Positions 42,513 through 48,076 of a stretch of 64,000 nt of DNA are shown one piece after another. The stretch covers positions 173,428 through 237,427 of the forward strand of contig JAHISJ010000023.1 of assembly GCA_018818205.1 (NCBI GenBank), written 5' to 3'. Both the position numbers and the translations under genes were made by a program. Within the stretch, counting starts at the first letter, position 1, and each line of letters opens with the position of its first letter. This DNA comes from Patescibacteria group bacterium. GTDB taxonomy: Bacteria > Patescibacteriota > JABMPQ01 > JAHIRA01. The notes beneath the pieces were generated by a model. It did no database searches. It was given only the letters and a program-made list of their open reading frames with translations, and had not been told where the DNA came from.

Positions 42513-43847
42513 GTGGATCATGAAATTTTCAACAAGATAAAGGAGGATAATGTTCGGTTTATTCAACTGCAATTTTCAGACATTTTAGGATTGGTTAAAA
42601 ATGTAACGATTCCACTACGTGAGCTTGCCAGTGCGTTTGAACATGGAATATGGTTTGATGGGTCATCGATTGAAGGTTTTGCTCGCATTGCAGAAAGTGA
42701 CATGTACTTAAAACCGGATCAAAATACCTACGCAGTTATTCCGTGGCTCAACTCAAAAGATGGAAATACTGCACGTTTTATCTGTGACATCTTTAATCCT
42801 GACAGTACCCCTTTTGAAGGATGTCCAAGGCGCATTCTCAAAAAAGCGATAGAAGAAGCCGCATCTCTGGGATATACATACAACACCGGTCCAGAACTTG
42901 AATTCCATCTTTTTAAGAAGAACGAACAAGGCGAGATTAAACCACTTCCCTATGACCGCGCAGGGTATTTTGACTTAACAACAGACCAGGCCTATGAGAT
43001 TAGAAGAGAAATGACCATCACCCTAGAGAAATTTGGCATCTATGTGGAAACAACACACCATGAAGTTGCCGTAGGGCAACATGAAATTAATTTCAAGTTT
43101 GATAACGCACTTACTACCGCCGACAATGCTATTACTCTTAGATTTGTACTCAAAGCCATCGCCCAAAAATATGATCTTCATGCTACGTTCATGCCAAAAC
43201 CAATTGCAGGCATTGCTGGAAACGCCATGCACGTACACCAAAGTCTCTTTAATGTAGCAAGTTCTACAAACGCATTTTATCACGATGACGACAAATACAA
43301 TCTTTCAAAAACGGCATATAATTTTATTGGGGGGCAACTTGAGCACATTAAAGGTATGGCTGCAATACTATCCCCAACGGTAAACTCGTACAAAAGACTT
43401 GTTCCAGGATACGAAGCTCCAGTATATATTAGTTGGGCACGTACAAACAGATCATCACTTATTCGTATTCCCTGTGCTGGTACAAAGTCTAGAAACGCAA
43501 CACGTGTAGAACTCAGATGCCCAGACCCAACGTGTAATATTTATCTTGCTTTTGCAGTCATGTTAAAAACCGGGCTTGATGGAATAAAAAGAAATATCTT
43601 ACCGCCAATGCCAAGAGAAGAAAATCTTTACGAGATAGCAAAAAATGATACAGTCGGCGGTGGGGTTGAGAGTCTTCCGGAATCTCTTGGAGAAGCGCTT
43701 GAGGAGCTAAAGAATAACCGCGTAGTACAGAGTGCGCTTGGTGATCACATTGTTGAACGATATATAGAGGCAAAGGCAAAAGAGTGGGAAAAATACTGTA
43801 CATATGTCTCTCCATGGGAAATTGATAGATACCTTGAACAGTATTAA
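42513..43847 (+). CDS. glnA: Glutamine synthetase (type I-like, 444 aa)
   Basis: GS beta-grasp N-domain (IRFIQLQFSDILG) and catalytic-domain motifs (KPIAGIAGNAMHVHQSLF, NSYKRLVPGYEAP, SIRIP). GTG start at 42513. Confidence 0.85.
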   Translation: MDHEIFNKIKEDNVRFIQLQFSDILGLVKNVTIPLRELASAFEHGIWFDGSSIEGFARIAESDMYLKPDQNTYAVIPWLNSKDGNTARFICDIFNPDSTPFEGCPRRILKKAIEEAASLGYTYNTGPELEFHLFKKNEQGEIKPLPYDRAGYFDLTTDQAYEIRREMTITLEKFGIYVETTHHEVAVGQHEINFKFDNALTTADNAITLRFVLKAIAQKYDLHATFMPKPIAGIAGNAMHVHQSLFNVASSTNAFYHDDDKYNLSKTAYNFIGGQLEHIKGMAAILSPTVNSYKRLVPGYEAPVYISWARTNRSSLIRIPCAGTKSRNATRVELRCPDPTCNIYLAFAVMLKTGLDGIKRNILPPMPREENLYEIAKNDTVGGGVESLPESLGEALEELKNNRVVQSALGDHIVERYIEAKAKEWEKYCTYVSPWEIDRYLEQY

Positions 43848-43888
43848 TCAAAGCTATCTCAAAAAAAGAAAAGTAATATAATACACAC

Positions 43889-44962
43889 GTGCGATACAAA
43901 AAAATTGTTATAAAAATTGGCACAAGCGTCATAACAGATGAAAATGGTTATCTTGATTTACCACGAATCAAGAATATTGTTGAGCAAATAGCACAGATTA
44001 GAAAAGAGGGAGTTGATGTAATTGTCGTCCTTTCTGGAGCGGTAACCGCTGGTAAAACATTATTTCAAGAGGCAAAGCCAGTCACGTCACCAAAAGAAAA
44101 GCAGCTATACGCATCAGTTGGTCAGATATCACTCATGAACTATTTTTCTAAGCAATTTTTTGACAAAAAAATAACCATTGGTCAAATTTTGGCAACTAAG
44201 GAAGATTTTAGGGATAGAAAACACTACTTAAACATGAGAAGTTGTTTTGAAGCACTTTTGGGAAAAGAGGTAATTCCTGTCGTCAACGAAAACGATGCAA
44301 TTTCATTCCACGGAGCCACATTTACGGATAATGATGAGCTTGCGGGGCTTATTGCCTCTATGCTTAACTGTGACGCATTGATTGTACTAACCGATGTAGA
44401 TGGTGTGTGCGACAAGCATCCAAAGCATAAAGATGCTAAATGTCTCACTAAAGTCGACCCCAAAGAAACAAACGTTTTTGACTTTATTACGAGTGAAAAA
44501 TCAAGTTGTGGCACCGGAGGCATGTTTTCGAAGTGTAAAATTGCAACGCGACTTTCCGCAATAGGCATAGGCACACACATTGTAAATGGCACAAAAGAAA
44601 ATATTATTTCAAGCGTCATGGAAGGGAAGCTGGTTGGCACTGAATTTGTTGCACAAAAAAATATTTCGAGTATGAAGCGGTGGCTTGCCAATTCTCAAGG
44701 ACATGAAGTTGGTTCAGTATTTATTAACGAAGGCGCAAAAGAAAAACTCCTCACTAATGGATCGGTAAGCTTATTGCCTGTTGGTATAATCAGTGTTGAG
44801 GGTGAATTTGAAAAAGGTGATATCATTGCAATTAAGACCGAGTACAACCAGGTTCTTGGTAGAGGTGTTGCGCAATACAACAGTTCAAAAGCAGGAGCAC
44901 TTATGGGTAAAAAAGGTGAAAAACCGTTAGTGCGCTGCGACTATTTATTCATAATAGAATGA
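43889..44962 (+). CDS. proB: Glutamate 5-kinase with C-terminal PUA domain
   Basis: N-terminal IVIKIGTSVITDENG, amino-acid kinase fold motifs, and a C-terminal PUA segment (GSVFINEGAKEKL...GDIIAI). GTG start. Confidence 0.85.
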   Translation: MRYKKIVIKIGTSVITDENGYLDLPRIKNIVEQIAQIRKEGVDVIVVLSGAVTAGKTLFQEAKPVTSPKEKQLYASVGQISLMNYFSKQFFDKKITIGQILATKEDFRDRKHYLNMRSCFEALLGKEVIPVVNENDAISFHGATFTDNDELAGLIASMLNCDALIVLTDVDGVCDKHPKHKDAKCLTKVDPKETNVFDFITSEKSSCGTGGMFSKCKIATRLSAIGIGTHIVNGTKENIISSVMEGKLVGTEFVAQKNISSMKRWLANSQGHEVGSVFINEGAKEKLLTNGSVSLLPVGIISVEGEFEKGDIIAIKTEYNQVLGRGVAQYNSSKAGALMGKKGEKPLVRCDYLFIIE

Positions 44963-47040
44963 GAAAAATAACAGTAGGAATTATTGGTGCAGGTAATATG
45001 GGAACCGCTTTTTATAATGGCATCAAAAAATCATATCCAAGCATGTCACTGTATGTTTTTGACACCAACCAAAAAAAGCTCGACCATTTCTTAAAAAAAG
45101 AACAAACAAGCTCAATTCCATCGTTGATAGAAAAATCAAGTTATGTCATTATTGCGGTCAAGCCTCAACTATTTGACGAAGTCGCAAAGGCGATTCCAAA
45201 AGATACGCTAGATACTGTATTTATCTCAATAATGGCTGGAGTCTCGCTCAAGACACTAAAAAAATCACTCAAAACAAGTAAGGTTGTTAGATCTATGCCT
45301 AATTTAGCCATTAGTATTCAAGAAGGCTTAACTGGGTGGCTAGCAACAAAAAGCGTTTCTAGCAAAGAAAAGAAAGAAGTCTCTGAAATTCTTTCTTCAC
45401 TCGGTACAGAGATTGAGGTAAAAGACGAGGAAGGCATTGATAAAATTACTGCACTCTCTGGATCAGGTCCTGCATATTTCTTCCACCTTACCGAGTGTAT
45501 TCAAAAGCAGGCTGAGAAATGGGGATTTACTACAAAAGAGGCACAAAAAATGGCCGTTCAAACGTTATCCGGAAGCGCTCACATTCTTAAAGAAAGCAAA
45601 GAAACTCCCGGAGTGTGGAAGGACCGAGTTACTTCAAAGGGTGGTACGACTGAAGCTGCTCTTAAGTATCTCATAAAAAAGAAGTGGGATACTATTTTTA
45701 AAGATGCGCTAAAAGAAGCGTATAATCACTCAAAAAAACTTAAAGACGCAAGATTTTGTAGAGACGCAGAATTGTGTAGAGACGCAAGATTTTGCGTCTC
45801 TACACAATTTTCAAAGGTAAAACAAGCAAGCAAAGCCCTTGCTACACTAAGTAATGATGCAAAAAATACTCTCCTAAGCGAACTTGCTTCTTATGTTGTC
45901 GAAAAAGAAAAGAGTATCCTTGATGCAAATAAAAAAGATTTGAGCAAGATGGACAAAGATGATCCTAGTTATGACAGACTCCTTCTTACCAGTGAACGAA
46001 TAGCTGGTATTGCTGGAGATATCAAAAACGTTATAGCTCTTGATTCACCGCTTCATCTCACGCTTGATTCTTACACCCATCCAAACGGTCTCAAGATAAA
46101 CAAAATTTCAGTCCCTTTCGGAGTAATCGGTGTGATTTATGAAGCACGGCCAAACGTAACCCTCGATGTTTTTGCACTTTGTTTTAAATCCGGGAACGCC
46201 TGCATTCTTAAAGGAGGCGAGGAAGCACATGAATCAAACAAAGCAATAACCGCGCTGATTCATGATATTTTGCTAAAAAATGATATCAATACCGACTCTA
46301 TCCTTCTTCTTCCTCCCGACAAGGAATCTGTTAAACCTTTGCTGGAAGCTGAAGGAGAAGTCGACCTCATTATTCCGCGAGGAGGGCAAGGCTTAATTCA
46401 ATTCGTAAGAGAAAACGCAAAAGTACCTGTTATTGAAACAGGTGCAGGAATAGTACATACCTATTTTGACAAAGAAGGTGACGTAGAAAAGGGAAGAAAT
46501 ATTATTGAAAATGCTAAATGCAGAAGGCCAAGCGTTTGTAATGCATTAGACACACTTATAATTCATACAGACAGACTGGATGACCTATACTTTCTCATTG
46601 AGCCGCTCGAAGACCACTCCGTTGAAATATATGCTGATGAACAGTCATTTGAAGTGCTCGCTAAAAAATACAATCCTTCGTTACTAAAAAAAACAAAACC
46701 AGAAGATTTTGGCACAGAGTTTCTCTCCCTTAAAATGTCTATAAAGACAGTGCATTCTATAGATGAAGCACTAACACATATTGAAACGCATACTTCAAAG
46801 CATAGTGAAGCGATCATCACTGAAAACAAAGAAACGTCACAACTATTTCTCAACTCAGTTGATGCGGCAGCAGTCTACTCAAACGCCTCCACAGCATTCA
46901 CCGATGGCGCTCAGTTTGGTTTGGGCGCTGAAATTGGTATTAGCACCCAGAAGCTGCACGCGCGTGGTCCTATGGGGCTTAGAGAACTTACCACGTACAA
47001 ATGGGTAATTGAGGGTAATGGGCAGATCAGACCGGCATAA
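44959..47040 (+). CDS. Fused pyrroline-5-carboxylate reductase (ProC, residues ~1-255) and gamma-glutamyl-phosphate reductase (ProA, residues ~285-693)
   Basis: N-terminal ProC Rossmann GIIGAGNMGTAF... and dimerisation domain (GSGPAYFF...TSKGGTTEAAL). The C-terminal part has ProA/ALDH motifs (GNACILKGGEEAHESN, catalytic Cys in RRPSVCNALDTLI). The two parts are joined without a stop by the linker DARFCRDAELCRDARFCVSTQFS. Confidence 0.8.
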   Translation: MRKITVGIIGAGNMGTAFYNGIKKSYPSMSLYVFDTNQKKLDHFLKKEQTSSIPSLIEKSSYVIIAVKPQLFDEVAKAIPKDTLDTVFISIMAGVSLKTLKKSLKTSKVVRSMPNLAISIQEGLTGWLATKSVSSKEKKEVSEILSSLGTEIEVKDEEGIDKITALSGSGPAYFFHLTECIQKQAEKWGFTTKEAQKMAVQTLSGSAHILKESKETPGVWKDRVTSKGGTTEAALKYLIKKKWDTIFKDALKEAYNHSKKLKDARFCRDAELCRDARFCVSTQFSKVKQASKALATLSNDAKNTLLSELASYVVEKEKSILDANKKDLSKMDKDDPSYDRLLLTSERIAGIAGDIKNVIALDSPLHLTLDSYTHPNGLKINKISVPFGVIGVIYEARPNVTLDVFALCFKSGNACILKGGEEAHESNKAITALIHDILLKNDINTDSILLLPPDKESVKPLLEAEGEVDLIIPRGGQGLIQFVRENAKVPVIETGAGIVHTYFDKEGDVEKGRNIIENAKCRRPSVCNALDTLIIHTDRLDDLYFLIEPLEDHSVEIYADEQSFEVLAKKYNPSLLKKTKPEDFGTEFLSLKMSIKTVHSIDEALTHIETHTSKHSEAIITENKETSQLFLNSVDAAAVYSNASTAFTDGAQFGLGAEIGISTQKLHARGPMGLRELTTYKWVIEGNGQIRPA
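45770..45809. repeat. Perfect 18-bp inverted repeat (hairpin) with adjacent direct repeats inside the proC-proA linker
   Basis: aattgtgtagagacgcaa-gatt-ttgcgtctctacacaatt. The unit agacgcaagattttg also occurs at 45745-45759 and 45779-45793. Confidence 0.75.
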
Positions 47041-47101: not shown

Positions 47102-48076
47102 ATGAACCCAGAACACCCCTCCTTCATTCCACTCCAAGAACAAGAAACTTCTTCTAACCTAGAAAAGTGGCTCTCTTCTGAACTCCCCAAGCAATACGAA
47201 GAAAAAGCCAAAGCGCTAAACGAACTGGGTCTTTTGGAAGTTCTTCCTGAGTGCGGAGAGATTGGCATTGTTGGCATTGATGGTAAAGAGTATCCGTTTC
47301 CATCAGAAGAACAGATCAAAGAAGAGATGCTTAAAAACAGAGAAGTCTTTGAAACAAAGATGAGACAAGGCTTCACTGAGCTTGAGATCACTCCATTTGG
47401 CCTGCCGCTTGAGAGACTCATGCACACTGCCAGACAAAGTATTTTTAAACACCACAAAGAAGGAAAGCTCTTTGGCACAAAGAAGAATCAAGATGATGAG
47501 TCGGAATCATTAGAACCCTTTGAGATTAATGAATACGAACCACTCTTTGTCTGGGAAGACCTAAAAGACGCAGACACACAAGGAACACTCATCTACTACC
47601 CTAAGAAGTTCTCAAAGAATCACCAAGGACTAACCAAACAAGAACTTCTTGACGCTTCGAAAGATTCTCCTTTCTCAGGTTTCACCGTCTATCTCAGAGA
47701 AAAAGACATCAACATCCCGGGAGAAGGACACGGTCAAACCCAAGAAGGCAGAACACAACTTGAAGCAGGGAAATCTTTAAAAGAATACTTTACCTTACTT
47801 CAAACTCAAGCAGAATATCAACACGAATCAGGTCAAACCCCTGAAGACTGGCTCACTCTTTTTTCAACCCACCTCAAAAAAACCAATCAAGTCATTGATG
47901 ACTATCAGTGGAATGGAAGGTATAGCTATCTTTTCGGGTCATACTATCCCGTTTCCGACGACATGCCGCGCGCGAGCTGGATTCGCGATGCTGGGCAGGC
48001 TGGCTTGGGCGGGTACGGTCCCGGGGACCTTTCTTTGGGTGCGGGGGTTCGCTCTGTGGTGAGGATAGGGACTTAG
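47102..48076 (+). CDS. Hypothetical protein (324 aa) with GC-rich 3' end
   Basis: A long ORF with higher GC and C-ending codons than its neighbours. The last ~40 codons (47950-48076) are ~65% GC, encoding ...PRASWIRDAGQAGLGGYGPGDLSLGAGVRSVVRIGT. Confidence 0.4.
   Translation: MNPEHPSFIPLQEQETSSNLEKWLSSELPKQYEEKAKALNELGLLEVLPECGEIGIVGIDGKEYPFPSEEQIKEEMLKNREVFETKMRQGFTELEITPFGLPLERLMHTARQSIFKHHKEGKLFGTKKNQDDESESLEPFEINEYEPLFVWEDLKDADTQGTLIYYPKKFSKNHQGLTKQELLDASKDSPFSGFTVYLREKDINIPGEGHGQTQEGRTQLEAGKSLKEYFTLLQTQAEYQHESGQTPEDWLTLFSTHLKKTNQVIDDYQWNGRYSYLFGSYYPVSDDMPRASWIRDAGQAGLGGYGPGDLSLGAGVRSVVRIGT

Follow-up and report, generated by a model that had tools for sequence, protein, structure and literature searches.

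Repetitive extragenic palindromic (REP) sequences of the 'double foot' kind carry a 5' GT[AG]G and a 3' C[TC]AC foot and are also found in frame inside the tnpAREP gene (PMC6006769). Subclass 2.4 of the TnpAREP proteins, which is group 4 among the tyrosine transposases associated with REPs (RAYTs), has the signature NH[IFV]H / WQ / YIxNNP and is plentiful in Cyanobacteria and Bacteroidetes and scattered in other groups (Quentin et al. 2018, PMC6006769). The substrate bound by TnpAREP is the single-stranded REP, which it cleaves at a CT either 5' or 3' of the hairpin, guided by GTAG (Corneloup et al. 2021, PMC8266576), and this biochemistry is known for the E. coli, S. maltophilia and Marinomonas systems only (PMC8266576). 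GTAG-tagged REPs occur inside other genes as well, including repair genes, and stop codons are often found directly next to their GTAG termini (Di Nocera et al. 2013, PMC3733652). Here we describe such an element in a 64,000-nt stretch from a Patescibacteria group bacterium (assembly GCA_018818205.1, contig JAHISJ010000023.1, positions 173,428 to 237,427 of the forward strand; hereafter the window), where it lies inside one open reading frame (ORF) that joins the proline-pathway enzymes ProC and ProA. The linker between the two enzymes is likely to be a translated double-foot REP array that replaced the junction between the proC stop and the proA start and is tolerated as a tether.

The element itself, a double-foot REP that is codogenic and belongs to the subclass 2.4 RAYT family, is of an already known kind. 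It shares with the described double-foot REPs the 5' GTAG and 3' CTAC feet, the long perfect stem and the short loop; its family likewise occurs in Cyanobacteria, Bacteroidetes and scattered phyla, has in-frame copies both in the transposase and in unrelated genes, and is accompanied at some copies by RAYT-like ORFs carrying NH[IFV]H, WQ and YIxNNP (PMC6006769). The window copy differs in being an orphan with two extra tandem half-units and in its host, a Patescibacteria metagenome-assembled genome (MAG). What is unusual is that it forms the entire linker of two enzymes that are separate and translationally coupled in the nearest relatives. A similar distinction can be drawn from the part of Di Nocera et al. 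that deals with intragenic GTAG/CGTC REPs and with Rickettsia palindromic elements (RPEs; PMC3733652, citing Ogata et al. for RPEs). The elements described there resemble the window copy in being translated in frame, in adding 10-30 residues to a host protein that survives, and in occurring as singles, dimers or groups; as presented in that part, they decorate one pre-existing gene, whereas the window REP bridges two formerly independent cistrons of one pathway. A limited literature search returned no report of a REP as an inter-enzyme linker or of REP-mediated gene fusion, and searching the literature by the REP sequence or by its peptide string returned unrelated primers only.

Both enzymes are complete within the single ORF (Table 1). 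In comparisons with Pfam and NCBIfam profiles, the ProC domain scored 233 bits against TIGR00112 (aa 6-261; curated cut-off 197) and the ProA domain 532 bits against NF001221 (curated cut-off 289), the latter covering profile positions 7-417 of 418. The ProC-ProA fusion of 693 aa that the original prediction had read from the DNA is therefore borne out, and the region recurs base for base in the ENA contig k141_1722070, which is 318 kb long, and in the Logan assembly made separately from SRR6514274. This agreement bears on the possibility that a homopolymer miscount or a mis-assembled repeat falsely links proC and proA. Palindromes and tandem repeats are difficult to assemble, and one more A in a run of seven (A7) near the end of proC would let ProC terminate at its normal 262 aa; however, the MEGAHIT-type (ENA) and Logan assemblies agree exactly, the 18-nt units of the array maintain the frame at any copy number, the conserved Leu261 backs the A7 count, and two intact domains share one frame across 2 kb. 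We therefore regard an assembly or sequencing artefact as extremely improbable.

The linker DNA opens with three tandem 18-nt half-REP units, each composed of left foot, stem and centre, which are 100, 78 and 94% identical to unit 1 taken as the reference. They translate as (K)DARFC-RDAELC-RDARFC, and TRF assigned the array a period of 18 and 2.8 copies, the highest tandem score in the window. The two direct copies of agacgcaagattttg that had been noted earlier are present, but they are really units 1 and 3 of this three-unit array. An inverted arm following the units completes a perfect palindrome with 18-nt arms and a 4-nt loop, as originally described, and at its heart lies the 28-nt core GTAGAGACGCAAGATTTTGCGTCTCTAC, which is read in frame as RDARFCVST (CRDARFCVST in its context). 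The feet of the core agree with the double-foot definition (PMC6006769). Counting the feet and a 6-nt extension on either side, the fully paired 18-nt arms and the loop GATT fall within the long paired stem (7-20 nt) and the short loop (2-5 nt) looked for in such elements. The REP is located wholly within the ORF, keeps the frame and leaves ProC and ProA intact on either side, which makes it a codogenic insertion. A 23-aa linker had been called the only non-homologous segment; the linker is there, with a small overlap onto the beginning of the ProA match (aa 280).

At the RNA level, the linker folds with -30.9 kcal/mol (z = -6.2; none of 200 shuffles was equally stable) and forms the strongest hairpin in the window, and a 30-mer of the palindrome had no match in 100 shuffles of the window. 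The earlier suggestion of an intergenic terminator was not upheld, as the arm is followed by just TT instead of a T-tract and a terminator scan called neither strand. Rfam gave merely sub-threshold matches of the linker hairpin to generic hairpins, so it was not assigned to a known RNA family.

The alternative suggestion that the palindrome is REP-like, or a tiny mobile insert, proved correct, since the core belongs to a double-foot GTAG...CTAC family tied to the subclass 2.4 RAYT/TnpAREP. Looking for further copies, as had been advised, turned up one locus in the window but a family of more than 349 unique copies outside it. We described the family by its 28-nt core, GTAGAGACGC-N8-GCGTCTCTAC, and scanned one genome per species with GTAGAGACGC-N4-12-GCGTCTCTAC, which gave at least 120 loci. 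The matches listed came from Bacteroidota, Cyanobacteria, Chloroflexota, Patescibacteria, Proteobacteria, Acidobacteriota, Planctomycetota and others. Loci of Moranbacteria, Parcubacteria and Gracilibacteria contained copies too. Nearly all genome-scan matches listed have a centre of 8 nt; the centres vary among genomes yet are self-complementary (for example ACGGCCGT, AATGCATT, GATTAATC and AAGATTTT), and the flanks are unrelated from copy to copy in both genome and metagenome matches. The exact 28-mer of the window was found in at least 119 metagenome stretches with a G+C content of 32-64%. Among viral contigs, 93 stretches contained the pattern, compared with one for a shuffled-arm control of equal composition. 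The family is thus dispersed and multi-copy, with 2-6 copies on single contigs (L033, L145, L160 and L104).

Copies of the family are mainly intergenic, as long open frames hold 38 of 133 copies (29%) and 73% of random positions. A minority is translated within real genes at linkers or loops: in RecG, between Helicase_C and domain 3; in MoeA, inside MoCF_biosynth; in a molybdopterin oxidoreductase; in an AIR-synthase-like protein; and in three type IX secretion system (T9SS) C-terminal sorting domains. The element has two translated forms, SRDAxxxVST in the open frame also used in the window and VETxxxASL in the other. Two features of the window copy recur in the family. First, perfect palindromic extension of at least 6 nt past the 28-mer, which the window copy has at exactly 6 nt, occurs in 12 of the 349 unique copies, compared with 0.085 expected. 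Second, immediate tandem half-units, whose period equals foot plus stem plus centre, are found in L043, L158, L212 and L239, in L016 with a 20-nt period, and also within RAYT genes (for example L247 and L166).

A link to a transposase emerged from the 332 loci of genome, metagenome and viral origin, which were examined by a motif screen followed by a hidden Markov model (HMM) built from its matches. A RAYT-like ORF of ~200 aa was present in 23 of them (9 genome, 14 metagenome and no viral loci). Their profile matches are to NCBIfam NF047646 REP_Tyr_transpos (E 1e-17 to 1e-22) and to Pfam Y1_Tnp, and their motifs are MPNH[LVI]H, WQ and YIxNNP. In almost all of them, the stretch from the HuH to the Tyr motif contains the palindrome itself in frame, translated as VETQDFASLQ or VETHGRASLQ. 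That the palindrome doubles as transposase coding sequence may help explain why its outer arms are identical across phyla. In four RAYT genes (L081 4563-5768, L041 812-1600, L145 4074-4778 and L051 5614-6447) short repeats arrayed in long tandem runs border the internal REP and translate to (DDGRGLHG)n, (SHD)n, (SNEQ)n and (SPS)n; they resemble the tandem half-units of the window.

Several observations concern where the copies sit. Some are at the apex of longer perfect hairpins (L123 6997, L074 535, L139 5913, L204 2040 and L118 220), and terminator-like hairpins (for example in L123, L074 and L139) are among these, including what resemble bidirectional terminators, in the order A-tract, GC stem, REP, GC stem and T-tract; the apex position suggests either insertion into hairpin loops or a palindrome growing outward. 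On the phage contig L251, palindromes at 559-586 and 2416-2443 are separated by a spacing of 1857 nt that is equal in L252, L265, L269 and L253. In these related phage contigs, each palindrome lies just past a gene's 3' end, in one case that of the major capsid gene and in the other that of the gene beside the prohead protease. A mobile element as the cause of the 1857-nt spacing was rejected, because the segment carries the phage capsid and protease genes and the palindromes follow gene ends. This REP-like position after genes makes phages possible carriers in the spread of the family.

The state of the locus before the fusion can be approached through relatives with separate genes. All three of the nearest ProC genes that were examined, including one of a Patescibacteria MAG, belong to proB-proC-proA operons, with 4 nt or 3 nt between the proC stop and the proA start or with an overlap of the two. 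Comparing orthologous proC/proA loci, a check named in the original prediction, thus returned separate genes with a near-zero gap. The 4-nt overlap of proB and proC seen in the window is present in the relatives L124, L126 and L128 too, and related proB-proC-proA operons were seen in further Patescibacteria and Peregrinibacteria MAGs. In the relatives, the conserved Leu of an S-x-x-L motif near the C-terminus of stand-alone ProC is followed by 2-6 residues, the stop, the gap and 6-10 ProA residues before F/L-x-x-V-Q/K-x-A-S. In the window, Leu261 aligns with this conserved Leu, just Lys262 separates it from the array, and the conserved ProA N-terminus (QFSKVKQASKAL) comes right after the array. 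By this alignment, the array of ~61 nt stands in place of ~33-43 nt of the junction.

These distances also bear on the idea, raised in the original prediction, that an intergenic hairpin was absorbed when the proC stop and proA start were lost. Under that scenario, a REP located between separate proC and proA genes became coding once the stop had been lost through a subsequent frameshift or point mutation, with the A7 run as one possible site. The family is largely intergenic, GTAG REP termini often abut or supply the stop codons of upstream genes (PMC3733652), and a TAA follows directly after the A7 run in the -1 frame. However, the proC-proA junction of the relatives has no intergenic space to house such a hairpin, which makes an absorbed element unlikely, and none of the codons ATG, GTG and TTG remains in frame with upstream context between the REP and the conserved ProA N-terminus. 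Nor does the -1 TAA qualify as the old proC stop: since Leu261 in the present frame aligns with S-x-x-L, the present frame is ancestral up to 45741. Overall, we consider the absorption scenario very improbable.

A HMMER search over 1.84 billion representatives placed the fusion in a wider context. Four other true ProC-ProA fusions, each a 50%-identity cluster (P0002, P0121, P0128 and P0153), were found, along with the ProB-ProA fusions P0122, P0125, P0240 and P0257. ProC-ProA fusions are therefore rare yet recurrent, so that the architecture once singled out as unusual is indeed rare but not unique to the window. Like the P5CS-type ProB-ProA fusions, they indicate that ProA tolerates an N-terminal partner, and the ProC-ProA order and complete domains are shared with the window protein. 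None of the four has the REP linker; their linkers are short and unrelated, without significant hairpins, and the proteins show no specific relation to the window protein. We rejected the hairpin as a conserved trait of ProC-ProA linkers, as P0121, P0128 and P0153 have none (z -0.8 to -1.9) and P0002 has a weak one. The P0002 linker (L001 1104-1151) contains an imperfect GC-rich hairpin, TTCGCCCCGC-GGCG-GCGGGGCTAC, with a fold z of -2.4, which is two substitutions short of a double-foot GTAG...CTAC palindrome and could be a second, decayed REP at the equivalent junction. We rejected it as a member of a second large family, as GTAGCCCCGC...GCGGGGCTAC had 3 viral matches compared with 1 for the control and a single copy in L001.

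The recurrence of such fusions raises the possibility that the window genes were fused first, by ordinary loss of the proC stop like that behind the other ProC-ProA fusions, and that the array inserted later into a flexible linker and partly overwrote it, as a passenger and not the cause. In favour of this order, REP-free ProC-ProA fusions exist in at least four other 50% clusters, REPs of the family enter linkers and loops of many genes, and the perfect palindrome looks young while the gene is without close relatives. On the other hand, no remnant of an older linker is seen beside the array, and the window domains give no positive sign of an older fused ancestor. Stand-alone proteins share 45-48% identity with the ProC domain and fused ones 27-40%; for the ProA domain the values are 55-64% and 39-57%, respectively. 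Because both domains are nearer to their stand-alone homologues, the fusion looks lineage-specific, and a monophyletic ProC-ProA fusion family was rejected on the same comparison. We judge a fusion that preceded the REP to be unlikely.

The reading that we prefer, replacement of the junction by a REP array, would involve the following steps. REPs of this family would be recognised and spread as single-stranded hairpins by a subclass 2.4 TnpAREP (RAYT group 4), and in this lineage a RAYT acting in trans would have placed the array where the proC stop and the proA start lay very close together. The array, which is one full 28-bp GTAG...CTAC palindrome with two extra tandem half-units ahead of it, would have entered in one of the element's two open frames, with a length that left proA in frame. 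Ribosomes would then run from ProC straight into ProA, and the element would amount to ~20 residues of flexible tether. The half-units may have arisen by rounds of HUH cleavage at the feet, each followed by rejoining, or by replication slippage at the hairpin. Because the array replaced the ~33-43 nt junction including the stop and the start, we infer that it probably made the fusion and did not enter an older one. We put forward more tentatively, at slightly under an even chance, the stronger claim that the mobile REP palindrome itself created the bifunctional enzyme in a single step by overwriting the 3-4-nt stop/start junction of the coupled genes.

Several points weigh against replacement by a mobile REP. 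The net gain in length over the relatives is merely ~24-34 nt while the array measures ~61 nt, so a deletion or replacement must be assumed. The nearest relatives, at less than 50% identity in ProC, are too distant to place fusion and REP in order, and no empty-site allele was found, the 90% cluster of the protein having one member. Across the family, no target-site duplication or clear target motif was detected, as direct repeats of 2-6 nt are about as common as expected by chance and the Y(-1)/A(+1) bias is weak. In the 64 kb of the window, the REP is an orphan and gives no sign of local mobilisation: the palindrome has no second copy even when 3 mismatches are allowed, there is no other GTAG palindrome, and the motif screen and HMM detected no RAYT-like ORF. 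Lastly, the insertion chemistry assumed for the window REP would be that of other REP/TnpAREP systems (PMC8266576), by analogy.

In the protein, the linker is predicted to be unstructured. In an AlphaFold2 (AF2) model built on 60 sequences, residues 263-279 form a coil with a predicted local distance difference test (pLDDT) score of 30-44, and the ProC Rossmann fold and ProA are above 85-95. The helical dimerisation domain of ProC also has low confidence, as expected of a swapped dimer modelled as a monomer. The model thus suggests that the REP peptide acts as a flexible tether between two folded domains, and the best-fitting of the readings offered in the original prediction is that of a recent insertion that now serves, by tolerance, as a linker. 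There is no plausible in-frame start (ATG, GTG or TTG with context) between the REP and the conserved ProA core, the sole candidate being a TTG in unit 2, so ProA must come from read-through out of ProC.

No specific RNA-level function is required to explain the hairpin. Ribosome pausing and RNase processing, raised in the original prediction, are hypothetical roles, as is the protection of upstream mRNA. As a weaker extension drawn from the sequence, the A AAA AAA run and the hairpin might let some ribosomes shift to the -1 frame, freeing a stand-alone ProC. A -1 shift at the run would meet a stop two codons on and yield a ProC of 262 aa. The run is separated from the first stem by 11 nt, compared with the 5-9 nt criterion, and A7 runs are common (90 on the + strand of the window), so an A7 run upstream of the hairpin may be chance.

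For the linker, the family gives a concrete origin: what appeared to be a private hairpin is a copy of a cross-phylum REP family tied to a known transposase subclass, and the family is extended to Patescibacteria. The locus is also a candidate case of a mobile palindrome fusing two adjacent pathway genes. Should this hold generally, codogenic REPs would supply gene fusion with flexible linkers that are ready for use. For annotation, RDAxxxVST or VETxxxASL peptides signal translated REPs and not conserved protein motifs or frameshift errors.

Table 1. Coordinates of the fusion locus (window positions) and of RAYT-like genes that contain the palindrome (positions within the named loci).
Feature	Position	Strand	Remarks
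proB, glutamate 5-kinase (AA_kinase + PUA)	43889-44962	+	4-nt overlap of proB stop with proC start
ProC-ProA fusion ORF, 693 aa	44959-47040	+	single ORF; NCBI MBU1119194.1
ProC (pyrroline-5-carboxylate reductase) domain, aa 5-261	44971-45741	+	ends at Leu261
A7 run	45732-45738	+	register A AAA AAA; -1 frame ACT TAA, stop 45741-45743; weak lead
Three tandem 18-nt half-REP units (left foot + stem + centre)	45741-45794	+	45741-45758 TAAAGACGCAAGATTTTG / 45759-45776 TAGAGACGCAGAATTGTG / 45777-45794 TAGAGACGCAAGATTTTG
Full perfect palindrome (18+4+18)	45770-45809	.	arms 45770-45787 and 45792-45809; REP core + 6 nt each side (aattgt / acaatt)
28-nt core double-foot REP	45776-45803	.	GTAG foot 45776-45779, stem AGACGCAA, loop GATT, stem, CTAC foot 45800-45803
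ProA (glutamate-5-semialdehyde dehydrogenase) domain, aa 280-691	45796-47031	+	NF001221
RAYT-like genes with internal 28-bp palindrome	L079 2141-2743, L104 5994-6611, L055 4928-5575, L141 5580-6194		plus 19 further loci

Very small hairpin-forming repeats similar to this family in form occur elsewhere. The small dispersed repeats (SDRs) of Nostoc, which Elhai and colleagues reportedly described in 2008, are said to be 21-27 nt long, to occur in filamentous cyanobacteria and to be often nested in themselves or in short tandem repeats. No transposase link is known to have been proposed for them. Cyanobacterial SDR elements are also said to have a heptamer-repeat context, and this would resemble the tandem-repeat runs in the RAYT genes.

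Directly downstream of the fusion gene lies a 324-aa ORF (47102-48076) without a Pfam match in the precomputed annotation. Upstream, a type I glutamine synthetase gene (42513-43847) is directly followed by proB and the fusion gene, the three spanning 42513-47040. Patescibacteria are a group mostly poor in amino-acid biosynthesis, and a full proline pathway plus glnA in a genome of this group is noteworthy.

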